Of a DNA stretch of 64,000 nt, positions 43,000-60,095 are shown in pieces. The first letter of the stretch is position 1. Each line of letters starts with the position of its first letter. Position numbers and translations under genes: made by a program. The notes under the pieces were generated by a model, which was not told the DNA's origin, did not search any database, and was given only the letters and a program-made list of their open reading frames with translations. The stretch comes from a virus, in IMG/VR virus record IMGVR_UViG_3300029267_001213, positions 1-64,000 of that record; one strand, given 5' to 3'.

Positions 43000-43024
43000 T
43001 AACTATGCGGAATCATTAGGGAAC
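43000..43024 (+). promoter_or_regulatory. 25-bp motif copy (TAnC-N5-GRAATCATTA-NN-GAAC)
   Basis: Matches two inverted copies at 51828-51852 and 51892-51916. Confidence 0.5.
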
Positions 43025-43050
43025 TTTCTGTCTTTTTATGTCGATTTTCC

Positions 43051-43080
43051 TTGATACCAATATAGAATATAATTTATACT
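43051..43080 (+). promoter_or_regulatory. Sigma70-like promoter of the small-gene block
   Basis: TTGATA-N18-TATACT, 21 nt before ATG 43102. Confidence 0.6.
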
Positions 43081-43101
43081 TAAAATAAAGGAGGCAGCAC
43101 G

Positions 43102-43479
43102 ATGAAACTAATAAATAAAAAACACTACATTAACAAGGACGCGGCAATTGGGAAACTGAAGAAGGACCTGATGTCTCTTTTATTCGTGAATCCATTTTGC
43201 AGATTGGAAGCAAAATTCACGAGAGACGGCTGGCGGTGCGTGGTTGTTGAAAAAGGCAACGTTATAAAGCGCCCAAGAATTGAGACTGTCGAAGCACTTG
43301 CAAGAGCCGGTTACCTGAAGGCGGACAGGCTGGACCCGGATAAAAAGAAATCTTATCTGTACAATCCGACGGAAAAACTTTTCCGGAAAGTTCTCAAACT
43401 TCAGCACAAGGCAGCGGGCCCGGCGGATGTGTTCGATGCAATGATGAGGAGGTCAGCGACTTTTAATCTGTATGCTTAA
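43102..43479 (+). CDS. Hypothetical basic protein
   Basis: AAGGAGG RBS; first gene after the promoter. Confidence 0.7.
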   Translation: MKLINKKHYINKDAAIGKLKKDLMSLLFVNPFCRLEAKFTRDGWRCVVVEKGNVIKRPRIETVEALARAGYLKADRLDPDKKKSYLYNPTEKLFRKVLKLQHKAAGPADVFDAMMRRSATFNLYA

Positions 43480-43527
43480 TCAATGATGACTGCCTATCGG
43501 CAACGGTAGGCAGAGATGATTGATTAA
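43476..43527 (+). other. RNase III-type hairpin 1
   Basis: 9 bp stem, 5x5 internal loop, 10 bp stem, GCAA tetraloop. Confidence 0.6.
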
Positions 43528-43719
43528 TCACTGTTCTTTGAAATGCGAATCGGAACGAAGACATCAGCTTCCAAGAAAAATGTCCCGTTCCACTTTTAAC
43601 AATTCTTGGCGAGTATCAAAGCGGCCAGAAAAACTGAGGCAAAAAGTAAGACCTCTTAAACAAATCCTTACCGGATGGCGGCGATACTTTTCCTAGCCGA
43701 CAGGCAAAACGGAAAGCCA
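43528..43719 (+). ncRNA. Putative structured ncRNA with two pseudoknots
   Basis: Several complementary segments in an ORF-free region between two RNase III-like hairpins. Confidence 0.45.
43532..43543 (+). promoter_or_regulatory. boxA-like antitermination element
   Basis: TGTTCTTTGAAA versus the rrn boxA consensus TGCTCTTTAACA. Confidence 0.55.
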
Positions 43720-43778
43720 GCTTAATTGTTGTTAGAGTGCATCATTGGTAGATGGTGCACTCAATAGAATGATTAAGC
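43720..43778 (+). other. RNase III-type hairpin 2
   Basis: 11 bp stem, 4x5 internal loop, 12 bp stem, 4-nt loop; G-U pairs fix the + strand. Confidence 0.6.
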
Positions 43779-43804
43779 GAGCAAAAAAAAACGTCCACCA
43801 CCAG
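43778..43804 (+). repeat. CGTCCACCACC(AG) dispersed repeat, copy 1
   Basis: Also at 47688-47705 and 59498-59528. Confidence 0.7.
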
Positions 43805-43839
43805 ATCATAAAAAACAGATTAAAAAAAAGGAGGCGACC

Positions 43840-44235
43840 ATGAATAGGAAAGAAAAGAATCAAGGCATGAATTGGGTTAGGCAGTCAACAAGGTTGGCTA
43901 TCTATCTCAGAGACGGACTTGCTTGTGCGTATTGCGGCGACTCATTGGAACAAGGCGCACAGCTCACGTTGGATCATTTGAAGCCGCATTCGAAAGGCGG
44001 AACGAATGAGGCGAAGAATTTAGTAACGTGTTGCCATAGGTGCAACAGTGCACGCGGCAACAGGCCGGTGAAAACATTTTGCAAGACGGTAGCCGAGTAT
44101 CTTAATCACGATGCGGATCCGGATGAGATTCTCAAGCATGTCAGGCGGACAGCTCGCAGGCAGTTACCACGGAAGGAAGCACGCAAGCTGATAAAGCGCA
44201 GAGGTTCCGTGGCGAGAGTACTGGCGAGAATGTAA
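43840..44235 (+). CDS. HNH endonuclease
   Basis: RDGLACAYCG, TLDHLKPHSKGG, NLVTCCHRCNSARG. Confidence 0.92.
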   Translation: MNRKEKNQGMNWVRQSTRLAIYLRDGLACAYCGDSLEQGAQLTLDHLKPHSKGGTNEAKNLVTCCHRCNSARGNRPVKTFCKTVAEYLNHDADPDEILKHVRRTARRQLPRKEARKLIKRRGSVARVLARM

Positions 44236-44274
44236 GCGAATAAAAAAATGTAAACCATAAAAAGGAGGCGAGTT

Positions 44275-44628
44275 ATGAGAATTAATTACACATGCAAAAA
44301 ATGCGGTCAGATAATTCCGAAGAAAGATATTGATGAATTTCAGGATGGATTGAAATGCGGCGGTGATCCTGAATGGGATTGTATTCCTGCATGGTGTGGT
44401 GATTGTGCTGAAAAATGTTCGGCTGGCTCGGCAGAGCCGTATGATGAAATACAGGAAAAGAATCCTGTAAAATCATATTTGGCGGACATCAAATACAATG
44501 TAGATTTACTTCTGGCAGATAAGGATTTCATGGAAAACTTTGAAGACAGCGAGCATGTTGTTACGGAACTGGAGAAGGCCAGAAAGATACTTTGCAATGT
44601 ATGGGATTACATTGGTGAGAGAAAATAA
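44275..44628 (+). CDS. Hypothetical protein with N-terminal Zn-binding motif
   Basis: CKKCG...CGDC; AAAAGGAGGCG RBS. Confidence 0.7.
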   Translation: MRINYTCKKCGQIIPKKDIDEFQDGLKCGGDPEWDCIPAWCGDCAEKCSAGSAEPYDEIQEKNPVKSYLADIKYNVDLLLADKDFMENFEDSEHVVTELEKARKILCNVWDYIGERK

Positions 44629-44642
44629 AGGAGATCAGAACA

Positions 44643-44837
44643 ATGAAAAAAGCAATAAAGAAAATAAAAGTTAATTCAATGGGTGAGGCGCACAAAATAG
44701 CAATGGCGGTTGCTTTTAATTCTGGCAGGACAATCGAGGCCAGAGAAATGTTCGGCTGCTTTTTAATAATAAAAAATTCAGAGACTGTTTTGGCCATAGT
44801 TGGGGTTGGTCAAAAAAGTAAAGGAGATGTACAATGA
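44643..44837 (+). CDS. Hypothetical protein
   Basis: AAGGAG RBS. Confidence 0.55.
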   Translation: MKKAIKKIKVNSMGEAHKIAMAVAFNSGRTIEAREMFGCFLIIKNSETVLAIVGVGQKSKGDVQ

Positions 44838-45067
44838 GTAAAATAGAAACCGACAGAAGAGAAATACTGGACGCTATTCATGCATTGGAATACGCAAATG
44901 AAAACGATTATGCATTGGATGGCATTACAGACGAAGATGTAAAAAATTTCAGAGCTGTAGGCGGGGCAATATTTGAACTGAGAAAAAATTCTGCTGTTCG
45001 GAATTTATGCAGGAGCTTGAATCTCAGCATGGAAGACGTTCTGAACATTGCCATAAGATTTATGTGA
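44834..45067 (+). CDS. Hypothetical protein (paralogue of the 47312 N-terminus)
   Basis: NENDY...GITD...LNLS shared. Confidence 0.7.
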   Translation: MSKIETDRREILDAIHALEYANENDYALDGITDEDVKNFRAVGGAIFELRKNSAVRNLCRSLNLSMEDVLNIAIRFM

Positions 45068-45075
45068 GCGATGCA

Positions 45076-45255
45076 ATGACAAACAGGAAAGGTAAAATAA
45101 GGAAAGTAAAAATAACCAATCAAAGGCGAGCGAAGTGTTTCTACTGCAAGCGCACGGAACCAAGCTCAAAACGACTTCGAGAATTTGAAGCAATGCCGGA
45201 CGAAGAATTCGACAGATTTTATTGCGGATGCCGGGATCCTGTTTCTAGACGATAA
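45076..45255 (+). CDS. Small Cys-containing hypothetical protein
   Basis: AKCFYC...FYCGC; start uncertain. Confidence 0.5.
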   Translation: MTNRKGKIRKVKITNQRRAKCFYCKRTEPSSKRLREFEAMPDEEFDRFYCGCRDPVSRR

Positions 45256-45283
45256 CCTTTTTTCAATCAGAAATAATTTTATA

Positions 45284-45347
45284 GCCAAGCGAAAGCCGGA
45301 ACATTGTTTCCGGCTTGTCGGAGTGTGGCGACTCCGGCCTGATGAGC
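45284..45347 (+). ncRNA. Type II hammerhead ribozyme
   Basis: GC-GAAA, stem III (GCCGGAA/TTCCGGC), UU, stem I (GTCGGAGT/ACTCCGGC), CTGATGA-GC; complete core in an intergenic region. Confidence 0.88.
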
Positions 45348-45369
45348 AGCCGAAAAAAAGAGGTGAGCT

Positions 45370-45573
45370 ATGAAAAACAAAAAGGCGAAAAAGAAACTGA
45401 ATGAGGCGGAACGAGAGTACAGCAAAGTACTTCGGACATATTCCGATACGATGCTGGCCGAAACGATTGAGACGCTTGTGAGAGAGCACAAGAATCTCAG
45501 GATGAAAAAGACCATGGCAATTCATGAAGCACAGCGGCGTGGTTTTGCTGGCATTTGCCAGTCAAAAAAATAG
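45370..45573 (+). CDS. Hypothetical protein
   Basis: AAGAGGTGA RBS. Confidence 0.6.
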   Translation: MKNKKAKKKLNEAEREYSKVLRTYSDTMLAETIETLVREHKNLRMKKTMAIHEAQRRGFAGICQSKK

Positions 45574-45582
45574 GAGGCGAAA

Positions 45583-45852
45583 ATGAAGGGCAAAATTAAA
45601 ATCGAATCGTTGAAGCGGTTCTTAGCAGTGAAGGTGGACGAGGCAACGTTACAATCGGATGAGTATCGCAAAAAGGGCGAACACAAGGCGGCAGATATAG
45701 CGCATGGCCGGACGGATGCTTATGTGTATTTGTTCGATTTGTTTTTAAGAATTGATGATGCTGAGAATCCGGACAGTGATTTGAATCATCGAGTGCAGAC
45801 AATATCTGCACAGATAAGGAGATTACAAAATGAAAAAGCGAAAGGGATCTAA
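45583..45852 (+). CDS. Hypothetical protein
   Basis: AGGAGGCG RBS. Confidence 0.65.
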   Translation: MKGKIKIESLKRFLAVKVDEATLQSDEYRKKGEHKAADIAHGRTDAYVYLFDLFLRIDDAENPDSDLNHRVQTISAQIRRLQNEKAKGI

Positions 45853-45921
45853 TAAACCGAAGCCGATTAGCAATGAGGACGTCAAACATTGGGCGTAGCC
45901 AAATAAAAAAGAGGGTGAATC

Positions 45922-46398
45922 ATGAACATTATTAAAAAGAACAGCGGTCACAAAATAGCAATGGTCAGCCATGCGAGAGCTTGTCAGAATAAAAATAATT
46001 ATGAAGATGAAAATCTTCCAAAGGACAAGGCTACTCTGGTATTTTTCCTTATGAGAAAATGGCTGGAGATTGGAAATAAAAATGCATGGATCAGAGAGAG
46101 TATGGATCCTCCATTCAATGTGGAATCATTTTGCCCGTGTTTGTCCAGAGAAGACCTTCAAGAAAAATTCGAACATGGGAACTGGTGTCTCGGTCAGGCG
46201 TTTTATTACCTGAAGGATGGCAAGGGTTATTGCTTTATCAATCAGATCAACGGCGGTGATGAATGGCTGGTTATCAGAAACTGTATTCAGTTTGAAAGTG
46301 TGACCATGGCGGCTGTAATACGGGACGGAAAATTTGAGGACTTTCTTGACCGGATCGAAAAGGCTACAGACAGCCAGTTAGCAAGACTGGAATACTAA
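45922..46398 (+). CDS. Hypothetical protein
   Basis: RBS; HGNWCLGQAF...CFINQINGGDEWLVI looks like a conserved motif. Confidence 0.7.
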   Translation: MNIIKKNSGHKIAMVSHARACQNKNNYEDENLPKDKATLVFFLMRKWLEIGNKNAWIRESMDPPFNVESFCPCLSREDLQEKFEHGNWCLGQAFYYLKDGKGYCFINQINGGDEWLVIRNCIQFESVTMAAVIRDGKFEDFLDRIEKATDSQLARLEY

Positions 46399-46408
46399 GG
46401 AGAGGACA

Positions 46409-46639
46409 ATGCCAAAGAAACAGAACAAGGAAAAGAAAATTCGGGAACTGGACAAAGAGATAAGAAAGACATTCCGTGAAATTTCGGACATCGGTTACGA
46501 GCTTTTCGATCTCTCAGGCGTAACATGGCAGGAGCAGGAGATACTTGAAGAACGGTTTAAGGACCTGCATGTAAAAAAGAACCGGTTAGTCAGAAAGTTC
46601 AAGCGTCTTACCGGGGAGGGAAAATACGATGCCTTATAA
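46409..46639 (+). CDS. Hypothetical coiled-coil protein
   Basis: GGAGAGG RBS. Confidence 0.6.
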   Translation: MPKKQNKEKKIRELDKEIRKTFREISDIGYELFDLSGVTWQEQEILEERFKDLHVKKNRLVRKFKRLTGEGKYDAL

Positions 46640-47120
46640 AATTGAATGGAACGGCGGAGATTATAGCAACGTGGAACACGGAAGGTTTTATTGGGATGGC
46701 GAGTGCGGTCCATGCGGAAGGCCATCTGTAAAACGCAAAGGAGGGGTGAATAAAAATATACCGATTGTGGTTGATGCGTTTCTGGATTGCAGAGGGTATT
46801 CTCCGCAGTTGATCAGGATGCAGGGGTTATCTTTCATTGCTGGTGAGATTGTAGCGAAAGCATTGCACGACAGAATATCTTTCCTGCGGTGCAGTCATCC
46901 GGCAATAGGTTATGGTCCCGGCGGCAAGAAAACATACTTCTTGGTTCATCCCGGATTGATTGATCGTTTTATGACAGTATCCGGCTGGGGTGGTCGTAAT
47001 GACAAGGAGAAGGGTCGGTCGGATGCCATAGGCGAAGTGGCATTGGCGATGATAGATTTAATTCCTTCGGCGGATGAATGCGAAAAGATGGCAGCCAGCA
47101 TCAAGGAGAAAGCAAAATAA
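46629..47120 (+). CDS. Hypothetical protein
   Basis: GGAGG RBS; coupled to the upstream gene. Confidence 0.6.
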   Translation: MPYKIEWNGGDYSNVEHGRFYWDGECGPCGRPSVKRKGGVNKNIPIVVDAFLDCRGYSPQLIRMQGLSFIAGEIVAKALHDRISFLRCSHPAIGYGPGGKKTYFLVHPGLIDRFMTVSGWGGRNDKEKGRSDAIGEVALAMIDLIPSADECEKMAASIKEKAK

Positions 47121-47133
47121 AGAGAGGTAAGCA

Positions 47134-47319
47134 ATGGCTAAGAAATATTATCAGGTCACTTTGACAGTGACGGTCGAAGAAAATGATCTTATCGAATCAG
47201 AACTGGATGTTGAAGGATGGATATGGAATCAGCTTCATGAAGAGAATGAGTATATGGAACTTAATGCTATTAATGCAACAGAACATGTAAACCTTAAAAA
47301 GGAGGCGGGCTATGAATGA
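47134..47319 (+). CDS. Small acidic hypothetical protein
   Basis: GAGGT RBS. Confidence 0.6.
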   Translation: MAKKYYQVTLTVTVEENDLIESELDVEGWIWNQLHEENEYMELNAINATEHVNLKKEAGYE

Positions 47320-47680
47320 CATAAGAAAGAAACTGATGGACATGGACCGGGAAAAAATTTACAGCGCGATTCTAAAGCACGATTCAGAAAACGAGAATGA
47401 TTATACTCGGGAGGGAATAACAGACCGAGAGGTGAGGATGTTTCGCATAATAGGAATGCGCGGGATGGATGCCTTGTGGGTTGACGTAAAAGATTTGGCG
47501 AAGATGTTGAATCTGTCCGGCGAGACAGTCATGTCTATAGCGGAAGAATATTTTTCAATCTGCGAAAACTGCGGCAAGCGTATTACGGAATATGATATTA
47601 AAGTTTATCGGGACGGTGTAAATCATCCGGATGGCATTCCGTCATATTGTGCAGATTGCGCGGAATTAGAATCAGCATAA
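47312..47680 (+). CDS. Two-domain hypothetical protein (44834-like plus 44275-like Zn domain)
   Basis: Internal paralogy visible in the translations. Confidence 0.7.
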   Translation: MNDIRKKLMDMDREKIYSAILKHDSENENDYTREGITDREVRMFRIIGMRGMDALWVDVKDLAKMLNLSGETVMSIAEEYFSICENCGKRITEYDIKVYRDGVNHPDGIPSYCADCAELESA

Positions 47681-47723
47681 ATAAAACCGTCCACCACCAG
47701 CCCCATAAAAAAGGAGAGGCAAT

Positions 47724-47921
47724 ATGGATTACAAAACAAGAACAACATTAACAGAAAACAATGAAGGCAAATGGACGGTATCTGTTCAGGCATATGATAA
47801 GACCGTCTGGACAGGCGGGTATTATCATTCTTTTGGTGAGGCTTGTGCAGCTGCCGAGCGTGCAATAGGCGACGTTTATCAAATGATTGCAAGGCGCGAA
47901 GGAGGAGAAAAAAAATGTTGA
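47724..47921 (+). CDS. Hypothetical protein
   Basis: AAGGAGAGG RBS. Confidence 0.6.
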   Translation: MDYKTRTTLTENNEGKWTVSVQAYDKTVWTGGYYHSFGEACAAAERAIGDVYQMIARREGGEKKC

Positions 47922-48205
47922 ACCTTTCAGACAGCATGCTCAAGGAATTGAGAATTCTCAAAAGACATTCGGACGGCAAGATGGCATTCGGCATGAAGAT
48001 CAAGGATAAGCCTCCGGTGTGCAGAACTGAAATGTTACTTAGCGTAGCTAATGAATTCGTTCAAAAAGGTTATGCAACATTCATGGATATTGATAAATCC
48101 AGAGTGAAGATAACCAAGGAGGGAGAAAAGCTCGTAGAAAAATTTTTTAATCGCAAGACATACAAGGCCGATAAGCGGTTTAATTATCTGGCACAGTCCA
48201 AGTAA
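47915..48205 (+). CDS. Hypothetical protein, winged-helix-like
   Basis: FVQKGYA...VKITKEGEK; ATG 47915 after GGAGGAG. Confidence 0.5.
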   Translation: MLNLSDSMLKELRILKRHSDGKMAFGMKIKDKPPVCRTEMLLSVANEFVQKGYATFMDIDKSRVKITKEGEKLVEKFFNRKTYKADKRFNYLAQSK

Positions 48206-48222
48206 TAAAAAGGAGGGTAACA

Positions 48223-48885
48223 ATGAACGGAACAAAAAACGCAGACAGGCCGAAGGAATTCGGACAGGTATGTGTATGGCCGGGAACGGTAGTGAAGACG
48301 GCGAGGGCTGAAGGAGACAGCGTAAAAGATTTCGAAGAGCATGTGCGAAAAGAATTTGGCGTGCGGGTAATGTATCTTGAGGAGATTACAACAGCCCCGG
48401 ACATCGAGAATGGTAAACCTGTTGAAGGCACAGGCGGAAGGAATGATTTGTTTTTCGCTGTACACAATGAGGACGTTGAAAAGTTCGCAGTGCCGAGGCT
48501 GTCGGTGGGAATCCGCTGGATAGGCGATGTCCTGTCAAAAGAAAATTATCTGAGTCCAATATATCCGGAGAGGGTATTTGAGTACGTTTTGAGAAAAGAT
48601 GTGCTTACGAAATACGCGGATGATGATGGCGAAGATGATGATTGTGATTCCTACTTCGAAGACATTGAGCGTCTGGAAGAAATCCGTGAAAGGATGCATG
48701 AGCTTCTGGAGGAGGCCGAAGAAATAGTTCGTAATTTCGAAGGCGGCGATATGGCATACCAGAGGGCGAAGAGTTACTGGCTGGCACATATCAAAACGGC
48801 ATTGGACGATGAGCATGATTATCTTGGCGGTTCAATGGTAACCATGGAGGACACTATTAACGAGATGGAGAAAGTAAACCAGTAA
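48223..48885 (+). CDS. Hypothetical two-domain protein
   Basis: GTGGRNDLFF motif; acidic linker; GGAGGGT RBS. Confidence 0.7.
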   Translation: MNGTKNADRPKEFGQVCVWPGTVVKTARAEGDSVKDFEEHVRKEFGVRVMYLEEITTAPDIENGKPVEGTGGRNDLFFAVHNEDVEKFAVPRLSVGIRWIGDVLSKENYLSPIYPERVFEYVLRKDVLTKYADDDGEDDDCDSYFEDIERLEEIRERMHELLEEAEEIVRNFEGGDMAYQRAKSYWLAHIKTALDDEHDYLGGSMVTMEDTINEMEKVNQ

Positions 48886-48909
48886 AAACAGAAAGGAGTA
48901 ACAGAAAGC

Positions 48910-49155
48910 ATGATTTGTGTAATGGCAAAAATCAGGAGAGGTGAGTTCACTGTAGGTGGTCAGAAATTCGAACCTGTCGAAATGAACAGGCTGTTCGATG
49001 TGCCCGTAGACAACGTGGCGACAGCAGAAAAGGAGGTAAAAAAACAGATCGAAAAAATAAATAAAACTGGACGGCAGGGAAACTACGAGTATATCGGTCC
49101 CTGTAAAATGGCAGACAGCGGTGTTCAGCCCAAAGTCAAAGCCAAGGCTGAGTAA
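48910..49155 (+). CDS. Hypothetical protein
   Basis: AAGGAG RBS. Confidence 0.55.
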   Translation: MICVMAKIRRGEFTVGGQKFEPVEMNRLFDVPVDNVATAEKEVKKQIEKINKTGRQGNYEYIGPCKMADSGVQPKVKAKAE

Positions 49156-49188
49156 CTCAAAACGAAACAGAGAAAGGAGAAGAAACAG

Positions 49189-49509
49189 ATGGCGAAAAAA
49201 ACAGGAAAAGGATCAAGCAACAAAGCCCCGAGCGCAACAAATCAGGAACCCAAGACAGACCCGAAACCTCCGGCACCGAAGACAAGCGAAGTCGTTTTCG
49301 AAAAAAAGGAAACGAAGACTCTGGTGATTGAAGATGACTCCAAGAAACGGGCCATTTTTATCAAGGAGAAAGGCGAGAGAAAATCGTTGGTCATCCTTCG
49401 TTTTGCAAAGCAGCTTTATGTCAAAATGTCGGATGAGCAGCGCAAGGAGGTCGCGGAGGCATCCCTGAATGCAGTCATAAGCTCATTCAATAAACAGGGA
49501 TGGAAGTAA
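49189..49509 (+). CDS. Hypothetical basic protein
   Basis: AAGGAG RBS. Confidence 0.6.
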   Translation: MAKKTGKGSSNKAPSATNQEPKTDPKPPAPKTSEVVFEKKETKTLVIEDDSKKRAIFIKEKGERKSLVILRFAKQLYVKMSDEQRKEVAEASLNAVISSFNKQGWK

Positions 49510-49513
49510 CAGC

Positions 49514-49570
49514 GGTTTAATTACTGCTAGGGCCTACCAGCAATGGTAGGTCCACTGGAGTAATTAAGCT
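49514..49570 (+). other. RNase III-type hairpin 3
   Basis: 12 bp stem, 4x5 internal loop, 10 bp stem, GCAA tetraloop; directly before the RBS of 49593. Confidence 0.65.
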
Positions 49571-49592
49571 CCCATAAAAGGAGGCGAAAAAA

Positions 49593-49823
49593 ATGGACGC
49601 AGGAATAGAGCTTTGTTCTTTATGTGATTATGAGCTTTATAATTTGCTGGATAGTCTCATAGCAAAAAAGCAACGGTACTACGAGATGACAGCATTGGGC
49701 AAAGACGAAAAGCTCATGGAGATGCTTCGAGATGTTTATCATCTGGATATCGAAAAAATAGATTTGGATATTCAGCGTGTCGAAGAAGAACTGGACATTC
49801 GATTTTCGGAAGAGACCTATTAA
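49593..49823 (+). CDS. Small acidic hypothetical protein
   Basis: AAAAGGAGGCG RBS. Confidence 0.65.
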   Translation: MDAGIELCSLCDYELYNLLDSLIAKKQRYYEMTALGKDEKLMEMLRDVYHLDIEKIDLDIQRVEEELDIRFSEETY

Positions 49824-49838
49824 CAAAAGGAGGCGAAA

Positions 49839-50138
49839 ATGAAAAACAAAATAGCGACTAATCGGCTTCTTGATTCGGTATGGACATTAGAATACCAAGA
49901 ACTGAACACGGGTGAAATAGAAATCATTTCGTATTCAAGGGATAACCCATACGGATATGATCGGGAAAGAGAAGTGCCAATGGTCAGGCTTGTTGAGGAA
50001 GACCCGAACAGGACCGTGAAGGCAGTAAGGTTTGCAGAATACGAACAATTCGGACGTTGCACGAAGTGGGGTGAGTCTATTCCTGTTGCAAATCCAAAGC
50101 CAGTTTTTCAGTATCCATATCAGGGTCAGGTACAATGA
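49839..50138 (+). CDS. Hypothetical protein
   Basis: AAAAGGAGGCG RBS. Confidence 0.65.
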   Translation: MKNKIATNRLLDSVWTLEYQELNTGEIEIISYSRDNPYGYDREREVPMVRLVEEDPNRTVKAVRFAEYEQFGRCTKWGESIPVANPKPVFQYPYQGQVQ

Positions 50139-50518
50139 AAAAAAGAAGACAAAAAAAGCCTACATTCATTGAGAGAAAGATACTGATGAAGTATCTCAAT
50201 CTTAGGCGAGTAGAATGTAAGGTTAAAGAAATGTCAGCATTGCTGAATGAAAATTATTATGAAGCTGTTATCGCAAATGCAGAACGAAAAATTGTTCATA
50301 CTATCCAAAGAGAGCTGGCAACCTTTTCGAATGAACATCTGCAATCCATAACGGCACATTACATAGAAAGGGCTAATGAAGAAATAGACGTTTATACAAA
50401 AAAGCGACATAGGAAAATCGAGGAAGAAAGAAAGGCGTATTGCAAACAAAAAAGGAGGCGCGATGACGAAGAAACAGGAACCGAAAAGAAAAGCAGCCAT
50501 GCTGGCAAAGTGTCATGA
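50135..50518 (+). CDS. Hypothetical protein
   Basis: ATGA overlap with the upstream gene. Confidence 0.55.
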   Translation: MKKRRQKKPTFIERKILMKYLNLRRVECKVKEMSALLNENYYEAVIANAERKIVHTIQRELATFSNEHLQSITAHYIERANEEIDVYTKKRHRKIEEERKAYCKQKRRRDDEETGTEKKSSHAGKVS

Positions 50519-50747
50519 CTGCATGGGACATTATGCTGATGGCATGGTTGACTGCGAGAACGTTGGATGTCCTTTATATTCATGGATGCCTTACAGAGAA
50601 AAAGATGCAGACCTTGAATGGATGAAGTACAATCCAAAGCGTAAAGGTAAAGTAGTTAAGGAGAAAAAGAAACTTACTCCAGAGCAGCGTGAAATACTGA
50701 GTAAGCGCATGAAAAAGACAAGGAGAAAGTTAAAGAAAGGAAATTAG
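50463..50747 (+). CDS. Small four-Cys basic protein
   Basis: AKCHDCMG...DCENVGCPLY; AAAAGGAGGCG RBS. Confidence 0.7.
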   Translation: MTKKQEPKRKAAMLAKCHDCMGHYADGMVDCENVGCPLYSWMPYREKDADLEWMKYNPKRKGKVVKEKKKLTPEQREILSKRMKKTRRKLKKGN

Positions 50748-50750
50748 TTC

Positions 50751-51161
50751 ATGGCACCGAAGAGACAGCCCAAGCGATTCAAAAAAAGAGAGCGCATGAA
50801 AAAAGGCATGGAGCTGCGGCGTCTGGCTCAGGATGCGGTAAGTAAGATTGACGAAACGGCACAAGTTCAGTGGGGGTGGGATCAAGGACATATGCTGATA
50901 GTAATATTTAAGCGCAGGGATATACTTGATGAAGCAAAAAAACATGCATCAGTCGGATGCAAGCCCGGGCACTACAGCGTACCAATGGCTACAGATTTCA
51001 TTCATAAGAAAGAAACTGAGGCGAAGGATGAGCTGAAAAAAGCAATCAGGACTGCCATTGGCAAAGATACTCCGGTAGCGATACATGCATATAATCGGGC
51101 TTATGAAGATGTGCTCGGCGTTAAACATGTAGGAGGAGGCGATGTCAGGAATATTAAATGA
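50751..51161 (+). CDS. Hypothetical protein
   Basis: ORF in the operon. Confidence 0.6.
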   Translation: MAPKRQPKRFKKRERMKKGMELRRLAQDAVSKIDETAQVQWGWDQGHMLIVIFKRRDILDEAKKHASVGCKPGHYSVPMATDFIHKKETEAKDELKKAIRTAIGKDTPVAIHAYNRAYEDVLGVKHVGGGDVRNIK

Positions 51162-51486
51162 TGTTCTGGACAGATGTTATGGATACGGTGGACCACTACT
51201 GAGCAGCGACCGTGAGGCAATTCAGGAATACGTCAGGCAGCCAAGCGAGGAAGGATGGAACAGAATAAAGGATGTCGTGGTCAATCCTAATTACGGACTG
51301 GGACTGAGTGTTGAAAATGCTCTGGTCGGATGGATGCTAAATCTGGATGCTTCTGTCTTTTCAAGAGAGAACATGCGTCAGCAAATTATCAATCGAAGGA
51401 TTCAGCCACCCAGCGGATTCAATCTGGTGCAAGCTTTAAAATTCGTAACAGCAAGGTATGAAAAACAGAAAGGCAATCGGGCGTAG
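51142..51486 (+). CDS. Hypothetical protein
   Basis: GGAGGAGG RBS; last gene of the small-gene block. Confidence 0.6.
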   Translation: MSGILNDVLDRCYGYGGPLLSSDREAIQEYVRQPSEEGWNRIKDVVVNPNYGLGLSVENALVGWMLNLDASVFSRENMRQQIINRRIQPPSGFNLVQALKFVTARYEKQKGNRA

Positions 51487-51494
51487 CCAGTGAT

Positions 51495-51603
51495 TTTCCT
51501 TTCCGGCATACAGCCGATAGAACCAGATAATGCGGACAGGGTTTTAAGATTCGCCTCTTTTTTACCTGTTTGTGGTTCTGTCGGTTGTATGCTGGGAAGG
51601 AAA
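51495..51603 (+). ncRNA. Long hairpin RNA with an anti-Shine-Dalgarno loop (putative sRNA)
   Basis: 31-bp helix with 4 G-U pairs and no mismatch, 8-bp inner stem, loop TTCGCCTCTTTTTT. Confidence 0.6.
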
Positions 51604-51822
51604 GCGCAATTAAGCAGCGATACTTCAGTGAATGAACAAGGGTTAAGCATACGACATTAAAAAAGAAACCGGCTACAAAATGATACATAAAGAAAGGGGT
51701 GATATACCTAAGACAACAGCGACGCGGACTTCTTTAATAAAATTGGATAGATAACTTTTCTATGAGCAAACTTTTTCAAGAAAGATACTAAGTGCTATTA
51801 AAAGTATGGAGCCGGTATTGTT

Positions 51823-51920
51823 GCATGGTTCGGTAATGATTTCATGCGGGTAGGTTCCCTATGAAGAAAAACGGCGTTTTGAAAACGCATGGTTCAGTAA
51901 TGATTTCAGCCGGATAGGTT
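51823..51920. repeat. Two 34-bp direct repeats (30/34 identical), 64-bp period
   Basis: GCATGGTTCRGTAATGATTTCA..CGGRTAGGTT at 51823-51856 and 51887-51920. Confidence 0.85.
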
Positions 51921-52141
51921 TTGTATGGCGACAACATACAAATAGAATGATCTTCTTTCTTTACCGGTACCTAATACTGCAGCATTATTTTTGCATTATG
52001 GCTGTACATCATACAGCAATTTTATATAATGCGTAGTACCTTAGTACATAGTAAATCTTACGTTCTATTATTTTGATTGATTGAATATGAAGACGAATTG
52101 TCTTTAATCAAATTTATTAAAAGGCAATGTATTGAATCAAC

Positions 52142-52158
52142 AGGTAATTTAATTACCT
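52142..52158. promoter_or_regulatory. 17-bp palindrome upstream of the AAA+ gene (possible operator)
   Basis: AGGTAATT-T-AATTACCT. Confidence 0.4.
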
Positions 52159-52198
52159 TAAAAAACTGGAAAAAGAACCAGAGAAAGGAAAGGGTAAC

Positions 52199-53365
52199 AT
52201 GGACAGAGAGAGAATCGCTTTTAATAATCTGGCGAAGGAACTGAAGACGGCATATCTCGAGCGCGGAGAGCTGGTTGATCAGGTATTGGCATGTCTGGTC
52301 AGTGGGAAGCATATCTTCCTGCTGGGCCCTCCCGGTACAGCGAAGTCGAGCCTTTTGAAAGCGGTATGTAATTCAATGGAGGACTCAAGATATTTTTCGT
52401 GGCTACTTACGCGGTACACGACTCCGGAGGAACTGTTCGGACCGCCGTCAATCGAAGGCCTAAAGAACGACAGATTCGAAAGAGTAACAAAGGGAAAGCT
52501 TCCGGAGGCGGATCTGGCATTCATTGATGAGATATGGAAGGCCAGCAGTTCAATAATAAATACCTTACTCACTATCATGAACGAGCGCGAGTTTTACAAC
52601 AATGGTGGTGGTAAGCCGATGCAGTGCCCGTTAAAATTCTTGGCGGCTGCATCAAACGAAATGCCGGCGGATGATGAGCTTCAAGCGATGTACGACAGAT
52701 TTCTGGTGAGGACGGTTGTGCAGCCTGTAGTTTCTGAATCAGCGACAAGAGCTTTGCTTACGCAGGATGATCCTCAGAAAATGATAAAAGAAAAAATCAC
52801 TGCGAAGATTCTGAAAAAAGCTATGGACACAGCCAGCAAGGTCAATGTGCTGGACGATACTGTGGACACGGTGATTAAGATTCGTAAGACTCTCAAGGCG
52901 GACGAAGGCATTGTTGCCAGTGACAGAAGATGGAAAGAAATCTTTTCATTCCTGAAAGCGGTTGCATGGCTGAGCGGAGATGATGAGGTCATCCCGGAAC
53001 ATCTGTCAGCTACTGTGGACTGCTTATGGGAACAGCCGGATCAGCGTAATACAGTTGCAAGCGTTGTAGGCAAGATTTCTTCTCCGGCAGTTGCTGAAGC
53101 GCGTGAGCTTCTGGATGCGGCCAAGGACGAAGCCAAGAAGGCACTTGAGGCTGCGAACAATTCGGATGCTGGCAATAATCCCGAGATGCTTTCACAGCTC
53201 GGAAAGGCGAACAGTCGTCTGGACAAGAGTGTGAAACAGGTTCAGGCGTTGTATAACAAGACAAAAAGCAAGGCGTCGATGGAAAAGATAAAAGCCATTT
53301 CGGAAGAACTTTCAGGACTCTGCAATGAAGTGAAGGAGACGGCGCGGAAGACTCTGAAAATATAA
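52199..53365 (+). CDS. MoxR / RavA-family AAA+ ATPase
   Basis: GPPGTAKS, TTPEELFGP, AFIDEIWKA, ASNEMP, YDRF and SDRRW motifs. Confidence 0.92.
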   Translation: MDRERIAFNNLAKELKTAYLERGELVDQVLACLVSGKHIFLLGPPGTAKSSLLKAVCNSMEDSRYFSWLLTRYTTPEELFGPPSIEGLKNDRFERVTKGKLPEADLAFIDEIWKASSSIINTLLTIMNEREFYNNGGGKPMQCPLKFLAAASNEMPADDELQAMYDRFLVRTVVQPVVSESATRALLTQDDPQKMIKEKITAKILKKAMDTASKVNVLDDTVDTVIKIRKTLKADEGIVASDRRWKEIFSFLKAVAWLSGDDEVIPEHLSATVDCLWEQPDQRNTVASVVGKISSPAVAEARELLDAAKDEAKKALEAANNSDAGNNPEMLSQLGKANSRLDKSVKQVQALYNKTKSKASMEKIKAISEELSGLCNEVKETARKTLKI

Positions 53366-53375
53366 GGAGGGTGCT

Positions 53376-55004
53376 ATGGTGATCGATAAGAAATTTTTCG
53401 ATGACAATGAAGCGCCGGCAGTCAAGAAAGAAGTCATCAAGGAAAGTGTGCGCGGTCCTGATTTGAAGATGGACATGCCGAGAAATAGCTGGGAGAGAGT
53501 GCAGTGGGAAAAGTTCCTGAATGATACGGAAGGCAATGAAGTACCGGATGGACTGGATCCACGAGGGATGAACAAAGAAAAAAACGAACAGATGGTCAGT
53601 CCTACGTGGCCGGGCTTTTCCCGGGAATTGTTTTCCCGGCTGTTGAATGCAGATCAGGTTGAATGGAAAAAAGAACCAAGTCCAGAACATGCATGGGCCG
53701 ATCTTGCACATAAGTCAGCGGACGAAGTGCGGGAATGGGATAATCTTCAGCGGCGATGCTACGATGATGAGACGTGGTCGGCTATGGCGGCATTGAGCAT
53801 TGCAAGTTCTGTGAAGGAAGTGGTTATCGGCATTGCGACTACTGAAGATTTACAACAGGAACGAGAACAGGCTGCAGGACTTCAGGCTCTTGCTCAGTGG
53901 ATGCAGAATCAGGCAGACAAAGAACAGGATCCTGCGAGACAGCAACAGCAACAGGAGAAGGCGGACAATCTCAACCAGCAAGTTGAAGACCTTATGAATC
54001 AGATTCAGCAAAAGGAACGACAGGCACAACAGCAGGCGAGTCAGGTAGATCCTTCTACGATGAGACAGGCGGTGCGTGCGGGTATTAATCAAGCACAGAA
54101 TCGAATTGAAGAAACTGAGCGAGCGATGTCCATGCTTGGGGCAGGTAAGGATCCGGGCAAGCTTCAGCGTTCTGGCGGTTCGCAATTGAAGACAGCTCTT
54201 GCCAAGAAAATCATGGAGAGCGAAAAGCTTAGACAGATAGCGAAACAGGCTGGACGACTTAGAACCACTGCATTGAGAAAGGCCAGAACAAAATGCAAGA
54301 CCGGCCGGTCTGAATATTACGGCGTGGAGCTTGGTGATGACATCGGACGGATGTTGCCGAGTGAATTGATCAAGCTTGTTGATCCGGCGCTGGAGAGTCT
54401 TTTTTATCGGGGACTTCATGAAAAGTCTTTGTCTCAGTATCGAGTGCGGTCAAGGGAGCGTGAGAATCGCGGACCGATAGTTGTGGCGATTGATACATCC
54501 GGATCCATGTACGGAGATAAGGAAGTGTGGTCGAAGGCGGTTGCCTTGGCATTGATTTCCGTAGCGATGGAACAGAAGCGACCGTGGGGTGTAATGTTGT
54601 GGGATACTTCACTTCAGGACACGGTTTTATCTGCAGACGGAATGGCACGGCCTGAACAAATGATGGAATGGCTTGAGGCGTTTTCAGGAGGCGGTACACA
54701 TATGGATGTACCTTTGAGAGAATCCATGCGGATGATTAATGAATGTAAGGAGCTGAGAAAGGCGGACGTGATTCTTATCACGGATGGTTGTGCGAACATT
54801 TCAAAAAGTGTTCAGGAAAAATATCTGAAAGCTTCCGAAGAAAACGGATGGTCAACGTTCGGCGTGCAAATCGGTGGCGGATGGGAATCAGGTCTTGAAC
54901 TGCTGGCAGATATTTGCGGCAAGCAAAATGTACACGAGATAAGCGATATGCTTTCGCGTGAAGATGAGGACAGAATTCTGGAGCGAATAGTTCCGGGCAA
55001 TTAA
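53376..55004 (+). CDS. VWA-domain protein (ViaA-like)
   Basis: MIDAS motif DTSGSM, GGGT, ILITDG; RMLPSEL; Q-rich coiled coil. Confidence 0.9.
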   Translation: MVIDKKFFDDNEAPAVKKEVIKESVRGPDLKMDMPRNSWERVQWEKFLNDTEGNEVPDGLDPRGMNKEKNEQMVSPTWPGFSRELFSRLLNADQVEWKKEPSPEHAWADLAHKSADEVREWDNLQRRCYDDETWSAMAALSIASSVKEVVIGIATTEDLQQEREQAAGLQALAQWMQNQADKEQDPARQQQQQEKADNLNQQVEDLMNQIQQKERQAQQQASQVDPSTMRQAVRAGINQAQNRIEETERAMSMLGAGKDPGKLQRSGGSQLKTALAKKIMESEKLRQIAKQAGRLRTTALRKARTKCKTGRSEYYGVELGDDIGRMLPSELIKLVDPALESLFYRGLHEKSLSQYRVRSRERENRGPIVVAIDTSGSMYGDKEVWSKAVALALISVAMEQKRPWGVMLWDTSLQDTVLSADGMARPEQMMEWLEAFSGGGTHMDVPLRESMRMINECKELRKADVILITDGCANISKSVQEKYLKASEENGWSTFGVQIGGGWESGLELLADICGKQNVHEISDMLSREDEDRILERIVPGN

Positions 55005-55025
55005 AAAAAAGAAAGGGGTAACAAA

Positions 55026-55958
55026 ATGAACATGAGAAATTTATCAGCAAAAGGGAGAGTGGATGCAATCGTAAAGGCGGTAGAATTTGATGGAGCACTA
55101 CTTGGACATATTGTCTGGTGGACTCTCAGGGAGGCGGAAGTGGATTGCGATGCTCTGAAAAAAGCGATGGAAGATGCTGGCATTGATTCTGAACAGCTCG
55201 GCATAAAAGAACCGAGCGCCAAGCGTATTTTAGGCCGTGCAGTAGGGAAGCTTTCGATAGAGCTTTCATCCAAAGAACGAAGGAATGGATCAACGTATCT
55301 TTTCAGGCCGGTACCTCTCGAAGACAGGACAGCAGCGTTTGCTATTGTATCCGAGAAGGAAAAGACAACTTCTGAAAAAGTGGAGAAGCTGATTCACAAG
55401 ACTGTGGATGTCGTATCTGTGGACAAGGAAGGAGAGATATACAGCGAAAAGAATCATGATACGGCAGACAAGCTGATAGAAAAATATAAGCGTCTGAAAG
55501 GCAAACTGGCTCCACCGGAAGTCAGAGCCGCTATGATGCAGCTCATGGTCAGTTGGGATTCTTTCCGGCTCAGAGACGGAGGGGGAATATATTTTGTTCC
55601 GGCTGGATTCGACAAGGAGCTGGCAGCATTGAAGGTCGCGGTAGAGTCCGTTGGTGCGTCGGTGTTTTATATCGTGCCGGTACCGGATGTGGCGGGAGCA
55701 AGAGAAGGTATAGCCAGTGCAGCCAAAGGAAGTCTGGAATCAGAACTTGCAGCTATCCAGCAGGAGATGGAAAAATTTGACGACAGCACCAGAATGAAAA
55801 CACTGGAAAGCAGAATCGGGACACTTCAGGATGTACTGCGAAAGGCCCAGTTATATAATGATGCGCTTGGCATGGCACAGTCTGACGTTAAGCGCATGGT
55901 TAGAAAATTGCAGACAAAAATTGAAGCGATTGTATTGGGCAGAGAAGATGCAGCATAA
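55026..55958 (+). CDS. Hypothetical protein (DUF6744 / DUF3150-like)
   Basis: LGHIVWW and LRDGGGIYFVP motifs; C-terminal coiled coil. Confidence 0.55.
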   Translation: MNMRNLSAKGRVDAIVKAVEFDGALLGHIVWWTLREAEVDCDALKKAMEDAGIDSEQLGIKEPSAKRILGRAVGKLSIELSSKERRNGSTYLFRPVPLEDRTAAFAIVSEKEKTTSEKVEKLIHKTVDVVSVDKEGEIYSEKNHDTADKLIEKYKRLKGKLAPPEVRAAMMQLMVSWDSFRLRDGGGIYFVPAGFDKELAALKVAVESVGASVFYIVPVPDVAGAREGIASAAKGSLESELAAIQQEMEKFDDSTRMKTLESRIGTLQDVLRKAQLYNDALGMAQSDVKRMVRKLQTKIEAIVLGREDAA

Positions 55959-58680: not shown

Positions 58681-59217
58681 ATGTCAGAGAAAGGCACATG
58701 GAAGCCGGGAGAATCATTTGATCCGACAAAAGAGTATGGCGAAGGTGGAGGAGGTATTCCCGATCCGGATAAATATTTTGCCATGGTAAGCGGTGTCGAG
58801 GTTGGAGAAAGCAGCAATCATAATCCTCAGATCGTTGTGAGTCTTCGGCTCATTCAGGGCAGTAAAACAAAGGGACAGTTCAGAGGAACGAGATTCAGAG
58901 ACTGGCTAGTGCTTACAGAAAATTCAATCTGGCGATTGGAAAATCTGTGCAAGGCTATCGGACTTACTGAAAGTTTCGATCCTACGGATGCCGAAGTTGT
59001 TAATGAGCTTTTTTATCAGAAAATTCTGTATGCCAATGTGGGCAAGGACGGTGACAAGACGAGAGTAGTTAAGCCGTTTTTCGAACAGGCCAGCAAGGAG
59101 GACCAGAAAAGGTTCAAGCAATTTGAAGTTCCTGAAGACTGGGATGATAGGTCTTTCGAGTTTCCGAGCGAAGAAGAGTCTGAAGAAAGTAGCGAAGCAG
59201 ATCCGTTTGCGAGCTAA
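58681..59217 (+). CDS. ssDNA-binding protein (DUF669-like)
   Basis: IPDPDKY, WRLENLCKAIG; acidic tail ending DPFAS. Confidence 0.7.
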   Translation: MSEKGTWKPGESFDPTKEYGEGGGGIPDPDKYFAMVSGVEVGESSNHNPQIVVSLRLIQGSKTKGQFRGTRFRDWLVLTENSIWRLENLCKAIGLTESFDPTDAEVVNELFYQKILYANVGKDGDKTRVVKPFFEQASKEDQKRFKQFEVPEDWDDRSFEFPSEEESEESSEADPFAS

Positions 59218-60095
59218 TGCTGGATCAGTTTCTCAGCGAGCCTAAAGTAGGCCAGCTGTCGGACGCTGGTTTTAGGTTGTTGTTAGCTATGCTCAATGGC
59301 AAAGTAGATGCTAAAGGGCGAGGGCGAGCACATCCTATTTATTGGCGTTCGGCAGCTTGGCCTTTCAGAGAAATTCAAATTGAAGAAGTGCAGTGTGCAT
59401 TGAAGGAGCTGGTGAGTGCAGGAGAGATTATTCCTTATCAGCGAAACAAGGAATGGTATATTGTAGTTCCAAGAGCTTTGAAGATTCAGTCAGAGACCGA
59501 GCAAAAAACGTCCACCACCCCAGCCCCACCGACAGCGGTTTTGAAAAAGGCATTGGATGGTTTTCAGCATTCGGATGCAATCATCAAGGAGCTGGTTGAT
59601 GATCAAGTATGGAGTGCGGAAAAGCGTGCAAAGCACAGGGGTCAAATAGACCGAAGAGCATATCAGCTCGGACTGGGTCTTGATTGGGAAGGGGATTCTG
59701 CAAGTTCAGATTATTATAAACGCGCACCGATGAAAGTGGTGCATCGGTTATATGCAATATGGGTGCAGGTTACAGGAAGACATCCCGGCAAGACCAAGCT
59801 TACAAAAAAAAGAGAACGTATGCTTAAAGATCGAGTGAAGGAGTATGGCCCTGAAAGAGTACTGGCAGCAATAAAAGGAGTACGACTGGATCCGTGGAAT
59901 TCAGGACAGGACCCACGGACAGGTGGAAAGAGATATGATGACTTAACATTAATATGCAGGAACGGAGAAAATATAGAAAGGTTTGCGGATTTATACGAAC
60001 AGGCACAGCGCGGTGAAATTTTACCGGATGAGATCGAAGATGATAATACGATAGCTAGAAGACTGAGAAAACGGAGACAATTAAATGGCGATTAA
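59217..60095 (+). CDS. Putative replication initiator / replisome organiser
   Basis: N-terminal wHTH-like LSDAGFRLL...D..GR; C-terminal LTKKRER...AI.G...DPW...YDDL; precedes the primase-helicase. Confidence 0.6.
   Translation: MLDQFLSEPKVGQLSDAGFRLLLAMLNGKVDAKGRGRAHPIYWRSAAWPFREIQIEEVQCALKELVSAGEIIPYQRNKEWYIVVPRALKIQSETEQKTSTTPAPPTAVLKKALDGFQHSDAIIKELVDDQVWSAEKRAKHRGQIDRRAYQLGLGLDWEGDSASSDYYKRAPMKVVHRLYAIWVQVTGRHPGKTKLTKKRERMLKDRVKEYGPERVLAAIKGVRLDPWNSGQDPRTGGKRYDDLTLICRNGENIERFADLYEQAQRGEILPDEIEDDNTIARRLRKRRQLNGD

Follow-up and report, generated by a model that had tools for sequence, protein, structure and literature searches.

The DNA analyzed here is the first 64 kb (the window) of IMGVR_UViG_3300029267_001213, a virus record of 86,553 nucleotides (nt) in IMG/VR that is estimated to be 78% complete. 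Our subject is a block of 23 small genes on the + strand (positions 43840-51486), encoding proteins of 61-220 amino acids (aa), nearly all without a known family, together with the RNA elements in and around it. These are a hammerhead ribozyme, three hairpins (H1, H2 and H3), an extension of the ribosome-binding site (RBS) found ahead of some of the genes, and a long hairpin at the end of the block whose loop is complementary to that extension. Non-coding DNA flanks the block, as a 360-nt leader (43480-43839) before it and a 712-nt region (51487-52198) behind it; tail genes lie on one side and MoxR/VWA and replication genes on the other. Gaps between the 23 genes are short or negative. The common strand, the short gaps and the lack of a convincing internal terminator in our scan are consistent with a single transcription unit.

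The hammerhead occupies positions 45287-45355 on the + strand. It matched the Rfam type II family (RF02276, Hammerhead_II) over the full model (1-66 of 66) at 54.9 bits, where the gathering score is 37 (E-value 1.4e-8 when the window was searched and 2.1e-9 for 43000-52200), and the hammerhead claimed in an earlier note on this DNA is thereby upheld. The conserved core is complete, comprising CUGAUGA (45339-45345), GAAA (45291-94), the A45294-U45315 pair (A15.1-U16.1) and the three-way junction. As expected for the type II permutation, stem I (8 base pairs (bp), 6-nt loop; 45317-24 with 45331-38) and stem III (8 bp, 6-nt loop; 45294-45301 with 45308-45315) are closed by loops, and stem II is open, its 2 bp being formed by the 5' and 3' ends (45289-90 with 45346-47). 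The predicted cut lies between 45316 and 45317, behind the triplet CUU (45314-45316), which conforms to the NUH rule. Loop I (UGGC, 45326-29) can pair with the 3' tail (GCCG, 45349-52) through 4 bp, one of them U-G; a pseudoknot of this kind is described as necessary for fast cleavage in type II hammerheads with a short stem II (PMC3088659). The earlier note had chosen an upstream GCCA (45284-87) as the pseudoknot partner. This fits in sequence, but the family rule is the tail, GCCG. Since the match is full-length and above threshold, self-cleavage at one point of the block is a well-founded prediction.

The hammerhead was the only Rfam family above threshold in the window, with the rest of the genome adding one transfer-messenger RNA (tmRNA) and one tRNA. 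No second hammerhead was detected down to E = 1 in 43000-52200 or, elsewhere in the genome, at the gathering score. Comparators were obtained by scanning IMG/VR with the 17-nt 3' half, which returned 22 loci; 17 distinct sequences also had the upstream core, giving a set of 18 with the window copy. All 18 have a YGGY motif in loop I that is able to pair with the tail, and in 13 of them an open reading frame (ORF) of at least 40 codons starts no more than 25 nt from the hammerhead tail. In the window, the corresponding gene encodes a 67-aa protein (45370-45573, + strand), with its ribosome site a few bases past the hammerhead tail and its ATG (45370) 14 nt past the tail and 53 nt past the predicted new 5' end. 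In this placement the window copy is typical of the set, and taken alone it is one more, ordinary example of a known pattern. A dense, gene-by-gene arrangement is found on another contig (L057, 228-989, - strand; the contig is shared with L039), where three type II hammerheads within 1.4 kb each stand directly 5' of an ORF of 67-70 codons. Note that for the gene 5' of the window hammerhead (45076-45255), ATG 45076 (59 aa) is probably the true start rather than 45007; two Cys pairs in the protein, CxxC and CxC, suggest a small zinc binder.

The long hairpin (51495-51603, + strand) begins 8 nt past the last stop codon of the block. Its predicted energy is -70.5 kcal/mol with a z-score of -10.8 (200 dinucleotide shuffles, as for each hairpin below), and none of the 200 shuffles reached this energy. 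Of its 47 pairs, 9 are G-U and none is non-standard; the structure consists of a 31-bp outer stem, a bulge of 6-7 nt and a 9-bp inner stem. At the apex (51541-51564), a weak 4-bp helix carries the hexaloop UUCGCC (51550-51555), with an unpaired probability of 1.0. In a sliding 120-nt scan of both strands of the whole genome, the segments containing this hairpin ranked first (-61.7 and -58.5 kcal/mol), against a + strand mean of -26.2 and a standard deviation of 6.2. The - strand version of the hairpin reached only -43.5 kcal/mol. The fold points to selection for pairing in single-stranded + strand nucleic acid, most simply RNA. A function as an intrinsic terminator was rejected, as the hairpin is absent from the list of the terminator scan and is followed by mixed sequence without a T run. 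The same test applied to the other hairpins found no T run behind H3; H1 is followed by a T-rich 8-mer, but the base of its stem is AU-rich.

The second partner of the predicted interaction is a tag, GGAGGCG, which precedes 8 of the 23 block genes. The C following GGAGG does not extend the usual pairing with the anti-Shine-Dalgarno (anti-SD) sequence. All tag copies are on the + strand; their positions are given here with the energy of the duplex that each would form with the loop of the terminal hairpin. The first (43830-43836; -18.9 kcal/mol) precedes gene 43840, which encodes an HNH nuclease, and the second (44264-44270, before gene 44275) has the best energy of the genome, -23.4 kcal/mol. 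The others lie at 45573-45579 before gene 45583 (-16.6 kcal/mol), 47301-47307 before gene 47312 (-20.6 kcal/mol), 49580-49586 before gene 49593 (-18.5 kcal/mol), 49829-49835 before gene 49839 (-18.6 kcal/mol), 50454-50460 before gene 50463 (-17.1 kcal/mol) and 51135-51141 before the last block gene, 51142 (-17.3 kcal/mol). The string AGGAGGCGA has 6 copies in the genome, all within the block on the + strand and 3-7 nt ahead of an ATG. For the window, 0.75 copies were expected, and 1 of 100 shuffles reached 6. The claim of a uniform extended RBS therefore survives in part: the local tag is real, with 6 of 6 AGGAGGCGA copies in the block, but its uniformity fails at 8 of 23 genes. Two of the gene junctions, 44245-44278 and 47282-47315, share a 34-nt cassette of stop codon, spacer, tag and start codon that is 88% identical, a duplication which suggests that start regions have been copied between junctions.

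The apical 25 nt of the terminal hairpin paired with predicted start regions of the block with a mean energy of -15.2 kcal/mol (n = 19), compared to -9.9 kcal/mol for those predicted elsewhere (n = 91; Mann-Whitney p 8e-6). When all start regions of the genome were ranked by this pairing, the block accounted for 10 of the first 11. None of 500 shuffled loops matched the observed mean. Together with its flanks, the hexaloop can engage the tag and the preceding A run in up to 13 pairs. On the + strand of the 86,553 nt, the 7-mer complement of the tag occurs once, in the terminal loop. For the tagged start regions of the block, the proposal that the loop of the terminal hairpin is complementary to the RBS was thus confirmed statistically, the observed loop exceeding 500 of 500 shuffled loops. 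Because the seed of the match is the private extension and not the SD core, ordinary messages would be spared.

Two of the shorter hairpins share an architecture. H1 (43473-43530, + strand; -29.4 kcal/mol, z -5.7; - strand -22.5 kcal/mol) begins within the stop codon of gene 43102-43479, and H3 (49514-49570, + strand; -32.3 kcal/mol, z -4.5; - strand -26.2 kcal/mol) sits in the gap that separates the stop codon of gene 49189-49509 from the tagged start of 49593. Each has 23 pairs in two tiers: the upper stem, of 10 bp, ends in a GCAA cap, the lower stem is AU-rich, and there are internal loops (2x2 in H1). They share an 18-nt core that has only these two copies in the genome, and they are its only GNRA-capped 10-bp stems with that core. 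H3 differs from H1 in the loop-closing pair (G-C to A-U) and in one U-G pair that has become C-G. By these sequence features, H1 and H3 are paralogues. H2 (43729-43767, + strand; -19.5 kcal/mol, z -5.9; - strand -12.3 kcal/mol), a 17-bp helix with 4 G-U pairs, is unrelated to them in sequence and could instead be a palindromic operator. None of 200 shuffles reached the energy of H1, H2 or H3. All three and the long hairpin are more stable on the + strand and together contain 17 G-U pairs. An intercistronic helix of at least ~20 bp, as looked for in an RNase III hairpin, was present in H1 (23), H3 (23) and the long hairpin (47 pairs). Of the three RNase III-like hairpins that had been proposed, then, all fold beyond shuffles, but they do not form a single family, H2 being different from H1 and H3.

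A scan of IMG/VR for the core of H1 and H3 returned 32 loci. About 5 had no helix beyond the core and appeared chance-like, and several resembled terminators with T runs. Fifteen loci (13 distinct IMG/VR sequences) had the same two-tier shape and were located between a stop codon and the next start. When these look-alikes were aligned with H1 and H3, 93.3% of cells were paired and 10 of 20 pairs were changed on both sides; the covariation score was reached by 0 of 500 shuffles. Note that the apical 7 pairs of the look-alikes were fixed by the search pattern and their constancy is uninformative; the three pairs beneath covary freely. This supports the assignment of H1 and H3 to a class of functional intercistronic RNA hairpins. 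The look-alike family, including L006 (8768-8819), L007 (2393-2444), L024 (7718-7769) and 10 further distinct IMG/VR loci, stems from uncultured phage contigs with SD-less leaders, and has in common with H1 the 18-nt GCAA-capped apex including the kept U-G wobble. Rfam gave no match for the five loci searched (L006, L007, L011, L012 and L024, three of them from the two-tier family), and the region around the L024 hairpin had no match among phage records.

The leader was also said to contain a pseudoknotted spacer and a boxA, and neither was confirmed. The non-coding spacer (43528-43728, + strand) folds with -47.0 kcal/mol, no better than its shuffles (z -1.43; 18 of 200 as good). One nt past H1, the 360-nt leader contains a boxA-like 13-mer (43532-43544, + strand) that matches the consensus at 12 of 13 positions and is the sole match in the window with at most one mismatch. 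The consensus used is the boxA of Gram-positive ribosomal RNA (rRNA) operons and may not be that of the host. At least one such match occurred in 20 of 100 shuffles of the window, placing it within chance. The position of the string, on the transcribed strand and 1 nt past a hairpin in a leader, is suggestive; it could equally be simply a T-rich tract behind H1. A literature search for the string together with 'boxA' found nothing, and a search for the bare string returned only papers on polymerase chain reaction (PCR) primers; a closely related string is reported as a PCR primer in the Mycoplasma rRNA spacer (PMC4312986). Antitermination is neither supported nor excluded by these data, and nothing beyond the boxA-like string points to it. 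Within 43480-43840, a promoter was sought and rejected: no acceptably spaced pair of hexamers was seen by eye and none was in the scan list. As a separate observation, CGTCCACCACC has three copies on the + strand of the window (43792, 47688 and 59509) and zero on the - strand. Two of these are in A-rich leaders ~30-40 nt 5' of the starts 43840 and 47724, and the third is inside the replication initiator gene.

We next consider the genomic setting. GC skew remains positive throughout; where genes have ribosome sites, they lie on the + strand. In the PHROGs mapping, 21-27 kb held genes for the tail sheath and the tape measure, 56-62 kb those for an exonuclease, a replication initiator and a primase-helicase, and a portal gene was placed at ~72 kb. 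The virus is a phage with a contractile-tail sheath gene, and the block is operon-like in its arrangement. To call it an early block is reasonable, as the label fits its position and gene content. Distant tail-sheath matches to phages of Bacillus, Streptomyces and Listeria, together with strong AGGAGG sites, hint at a Gram-positive host. Among 8 proteins from the stretch subjected to family search, only that of 43840-44235 was assigned (HNH nuclease); none of the 8 fell into the RegA, the RegB or any other RNA-binding family. With Rfam, nothing was detected in 43000-52200 at E up to 1 besides the hammerhead and one chance match. The latter, to IRES_Tobamo at 48053-48166 (32.3 bits vs a threshold of 50), lies inside a gene and was taken as chance. 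Long-range inverted repeats of 24-25 nt around the block (72-79% complementary) were likewise indistinguishable from chance.

Several features beyond the block may be recorded here. The 712-nt region between the long hairpin and the MoxR gene contains two 48-nt direct repeats at a distance of 64 nt (51823-51870 and 51887-51934; 79% identity) and, behind them, an AT-rich stretch; the repeats may be regulator sites or part of an origin. Three genes are packed closely behind the block (window 52199-55958), one for a MoxR-type AAA+ ATPase (PF20030, 4e-55), one for a VWA protein and a third. The second strongest + strand fold of the genome (59241-59360; -52.8 kcal/mol per 120 nt) is within the replication initiator gene and may be an iteron or origin region. 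Beyond the window, genome positions 80463-80856 (L003 16463-16856) encode tRNA-Met and, 14 nt on, a full tmRNA (136.2 bits vs a cut-off of 47) with the tag peptide ANQQKALAA.

Relatives of the phage are distant. The block had no match among 50,697 phage records (megablast, blastn). A 220-aa block protein gave 74 pattern matches in IMG/VR with 0 confirmed, and the 114-aa protein adjoining the long hairpin matched only itself among 5.8 billion clusters. For the MoxR ATPase, the best foreign match had 42% identity; the protein has thousands of cellular homologues at ~40% identity. Only one IMG/VR relative was found through it (39%); the contig, L002, is high in GC and has no comparable hairpin upstream. 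L002, an otherwise unrelated viral contig, has at 13332-13414 an int-alpA RNA match barely above threshold (36.0 vs 35.8 bits). The best match of the tail sheath also had 42% identity, the contigs in question not being long enough to include the block, and identity to the Bacillus, Streptomyces and Listeria phages was 22-27%. Among the sequencing runs listed for the phage there was no RNA run. Near-identical, low-depth pieces of the same phage are present in four DNA runs (Logan contigs with sediment and seawater labels). Differences were listed at 43928, 46802, 48345-48435 and 49002-49101, with inserted letters behind 43782, 49042 and 49050. No differences were found in the four runs inside the hammerhead, H1, H2, H3 or the long hairpin. 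As all differences are outside the elements, the runs gave no covariation.

How might these elements work together? That the elements exist, which strand they occupy, the family membership of the hammerhead and the statistical excess of loop-tag pairing are established by the findings above. Upon transcription of the block, the hammerhead would cut the RNA at 45316/45317. The downstream message would then have a 5'-OH end, open with the stem I hairpin and reach its start codon after 53 nt, and the upstream product would end in the stem III hairpin with a cyclic phosphate, so that the stability of the two transcript halves would be uncoupled. H1 and H3, behind stop codons, and H2 would be intercistronic processing elements or elements that protect 3' ends, the likeliest processor being a double-strand RNase. 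The 47-bp hairpin would constitute the 3' end of the block RNA and expose UUCGCC with flanking U/C. In 8 of 23 genes the SD sequence has a private 3' extension (GGAGGCGA) to which the exposed loop is complementary, and the loop most likely would pair with those starts, lowering translation of the tagged genes or generating double-stranded nuclease substrates. Pairing specific to the tag would turn down one class of genes and leave messages with ordinary SD sequences untouched.

We regard this action of the RNA elements of the block on their own transcript, through the hammerhead, hairpin processing and loop-tag pairing, as the best explanation as a whole, held tentatively and at somewhat less than an even chance. 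Its most specific part, the anti-tag role of the end hairpin, is a good, testable hypothesis, to which we give about a third of our confidence or slightly more. Stated in full, the 47-bp hairpin would be a riboregulator at the tail of its own operon, its hexaloop reading the SD extension as an address tag by RNA alone, without a protein such as RegA or RegB, and sparing host and other phage messages; this full statement is rather unlikely. The hammerhead and hairpin processing would then set which segments stay exposed to the hairpin. We infer co-transcription, every cleavage event, pairing in the cell, and the sign and timing of the effect.

A number of findings weigh against this explanation. 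Past the long hairpin there is no U tract or other 3'-end signal, and there is no known RNase site that would free the hairpin. The match between loop and tag was picked out post hoc, and 15 of the 23 genes do not have the tag. The reverse complement of the loop could pass for a further RBS spacer of the block, so that common descent and function are inseparable by sequence. The tag is located in a duplicated cassette and so may mark recombination junctions or a protein site. As to the hammerhead, the cleavage triplet is CUU here and GUC in 17 of 17 comparators; U at position 17 is tolerated in hammerheads but usually makes them slower. No relative is closer than 42% protein identity, too distant to lend covariation evidence on the hammerhead, on H2, on the long hairpin or on the pairing of loop and tag, which makes the instance weaker than it appears.

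Alternatively, the elements may be independent parts without any feedback circuit, a reading that we consider a serious one, though on balance it is doubtful. In that case, the hammerhead and the intercistronic hairpins would shape the ends of messages, as in many phages, and the long hairpin would be a 3'-end stabilizer, a processing site or a barrier to transcription before the next operon. Its loop would be the descendant of an inverted gene-junction cassette, and the tag a recombination mark or a site for a phage protein in the manner of T4 RegB/RegA. The repetition of the 34-nt cassette at 88% identity indicates that start regions get copied around, and the reverse complement of the loop aligns to the start region of 45922 as well as to the tagged starts; the restriction of the tag to 8 of 23 genes also agrees with this alternative. 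There is precedent for protein readers: T4 RegB is described as reading a long motif that opens with the GGAG of early ribosome sites (PMC3014915), and Pope et al., in their account of start-associated sequences, left undecided whether the reader is RNA or protein (PMC3203893). However, the loop sits at the exposed apex of a helix with 47 pairs kept, 9 of them G-U, and without a mismatch, which is not where a relic is to be expected. The tag complement is found nowhere else on the + strand, and 0 of 500 composition-matched loops pair as well as the observed one. Moreover, none of the 8 stretch proteins searched belonged to the RegA, RegB or another RNA-binding family, although most of the 23 block proteins were outside this search.

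The full model of the earlier note went further than action of the elements on their own transcript. It combined antitermination by boxA and pseudoknot, RNase III cleavage at three sites, the hammerhead, and silencing in trans by the 3' hairpin into a protein-independent timer. Everything that favors the best explanation favors this model too, as do the boxA-like string, matching at 12 of 13 positions on the right strand directly behind H1 in the leader, and the dimensions of H1 and H3, whose ~two helical turns broken by internal loops have the look of T7 early RNase III sites. On the other hand, the spacer fold is not significant (z -1.43), the boxA match is within window chance (20 of 100 shuffles) for a consensus that may not be the host's, the uniform RBS fails (8 of 23) and H2 is of another family. 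Six unverified steps are jointly much less likely than any single one, and we consider the complete timer improbable.

About as improbable is the suggestion that the long inverted repeat acts as DNA, the + strand forming a single-strand hairpin for priming, packaging or recombination. The hairpin adjoins the 712-nt non-coding region with its direct repeats and AT-rich stretch, just 5' of replication-related genes, and G-T pairs are tolerated in single-stranded DNA hairpins. Yet all genes are transcribed from the + strand, so that any expression of the block is certain to yield + strand RNA, and 9 G-U pairs are far costlier in DNA than in RNA. The initiator gene (59217-60095) contains a strongly structured region of its own, which is a likelier origin, and a role as DNA would leave the complementarity of loop and tag unexplained. 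Finally, an open frame of 56 codons (GTG 51490 to stop 51660) spans the hairpin, but that it is a real gene in which the structure is incidental is highly improbable, as there is no Shine-Dalgarno sequence ahead of the GTG, in contrast to the strong ones of the block genes, and a 47-bp helix in a coding region would block ribosomes.

The earlier note had supposed that the combination of elements was undescribed. Every component has a published counterpart. A limited literature search turned up no hairpin RNA from the 3' end of a phage transcript with complementarity to a private extension of the RBS. With regard to processing, the early genes of T7 are separated by intercistronic RNase III hairpins of ~two helical turns with internal loops. 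H1 and H3 are similar in size, have internal loops and are located behind stop codons in a same-strand, early-type block; they have no sequence relation to the T7 hairpins. In addition, the IMG/VR look-alikes keep the U-G wobble in their conserved apical core, a hint that the reader is sequence-specific, unlike RNase III. Hammerheads in prophages are reported to flank single genes or short groups of them and were proposed to process long phage transcripts (PMC3088659, Perreault et al. 2011). The type II hammerheads described from prophages and phages share with the window copy the core, the open 2-bp stem II and the pseudoknot of loop I with the tail, and they occupy the same slot between small phage genes, directly ahead of a start region. 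The window copy differs in being single rather than part of an array and in its CUU triplet, compared to GUC in all 17 comparators.

For control of translation by an antisense RNA of the same operon, c4 of phages P1 and P7 provides a precedent, being, like the candidate described here, a phage antisense RNA in the operon of its target genes. Citron and Schuster are said to have found in 1990 that c4 acts on a ribosome-site region and thereby holds down downstream genes. It lies upstream of its targets and serves immunity, whereas the window hairpin is downstream of its putative targets. The c4 RNA of P1 (RF01695) is described as encoded within the operon it restrains (PMC8198154); its model gave no match at E up to 1 on either strand of 43000-52200. 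A further precedent is the icaR mRNA of Staphylococcus aureus, in which an anti-SD motif of the 3' untranslated region is reported to pair with the SD region, blocking initiation and creating an RNase III substrate (PMC3868564). Both there and here, the 3' end of a message bears a pyrimidine-rich motif with complementarity to a ribosome site within its own transcription unit. The icaR system involves one gene and one SD sequence, compared to up to 8-10 start regions of a polycistron as putative targets here. Furthermore, the motif described here is at the apex of a 47-bp hairpin and would read an extension beyond the SD core, a prediction made from the sequence.

Post-transcriptional shut-off of early genes in phages is known mainly from the protein factors of T4. 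RegB and RegA are described as shutting off a specific class of early messages through their start regions, with the RegB motif beginning with the SD core (PMC3014915); these two are proteins, and the reader proposed here is an RNA. The nearest counterpart of the tag is the start-associated sequence of Cluster K mycobacteriophages, an asymmetric motif reported to contain the SD core and conserved positions without rRNA pairing (PMC3203893). It is located a few bases ahead of starts, in the non-structural part of the genome only, and its reader is given as 'either RNA or protein' (PMC3203893). The block tag has the same attributes: it is asymmetric, combines the SD core with non-pairing positions, and stands just before the starts of non-structural genes. 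It is shorter, has fewer copies (8) and differs outside the SD core from the 13-mer described for Cluster K (PMC3203893). A further difference is that here a complementary RNA candidate is present at the end of the same block. Private ribosome-site tags of other phages have been without a known reader since 2011, according to the account in PMC3203893, and the end-of-block hairpin is a concrete candidate for one. If the proposal is true, the hairpin RNA would answer the question of what reads start-associated tags.

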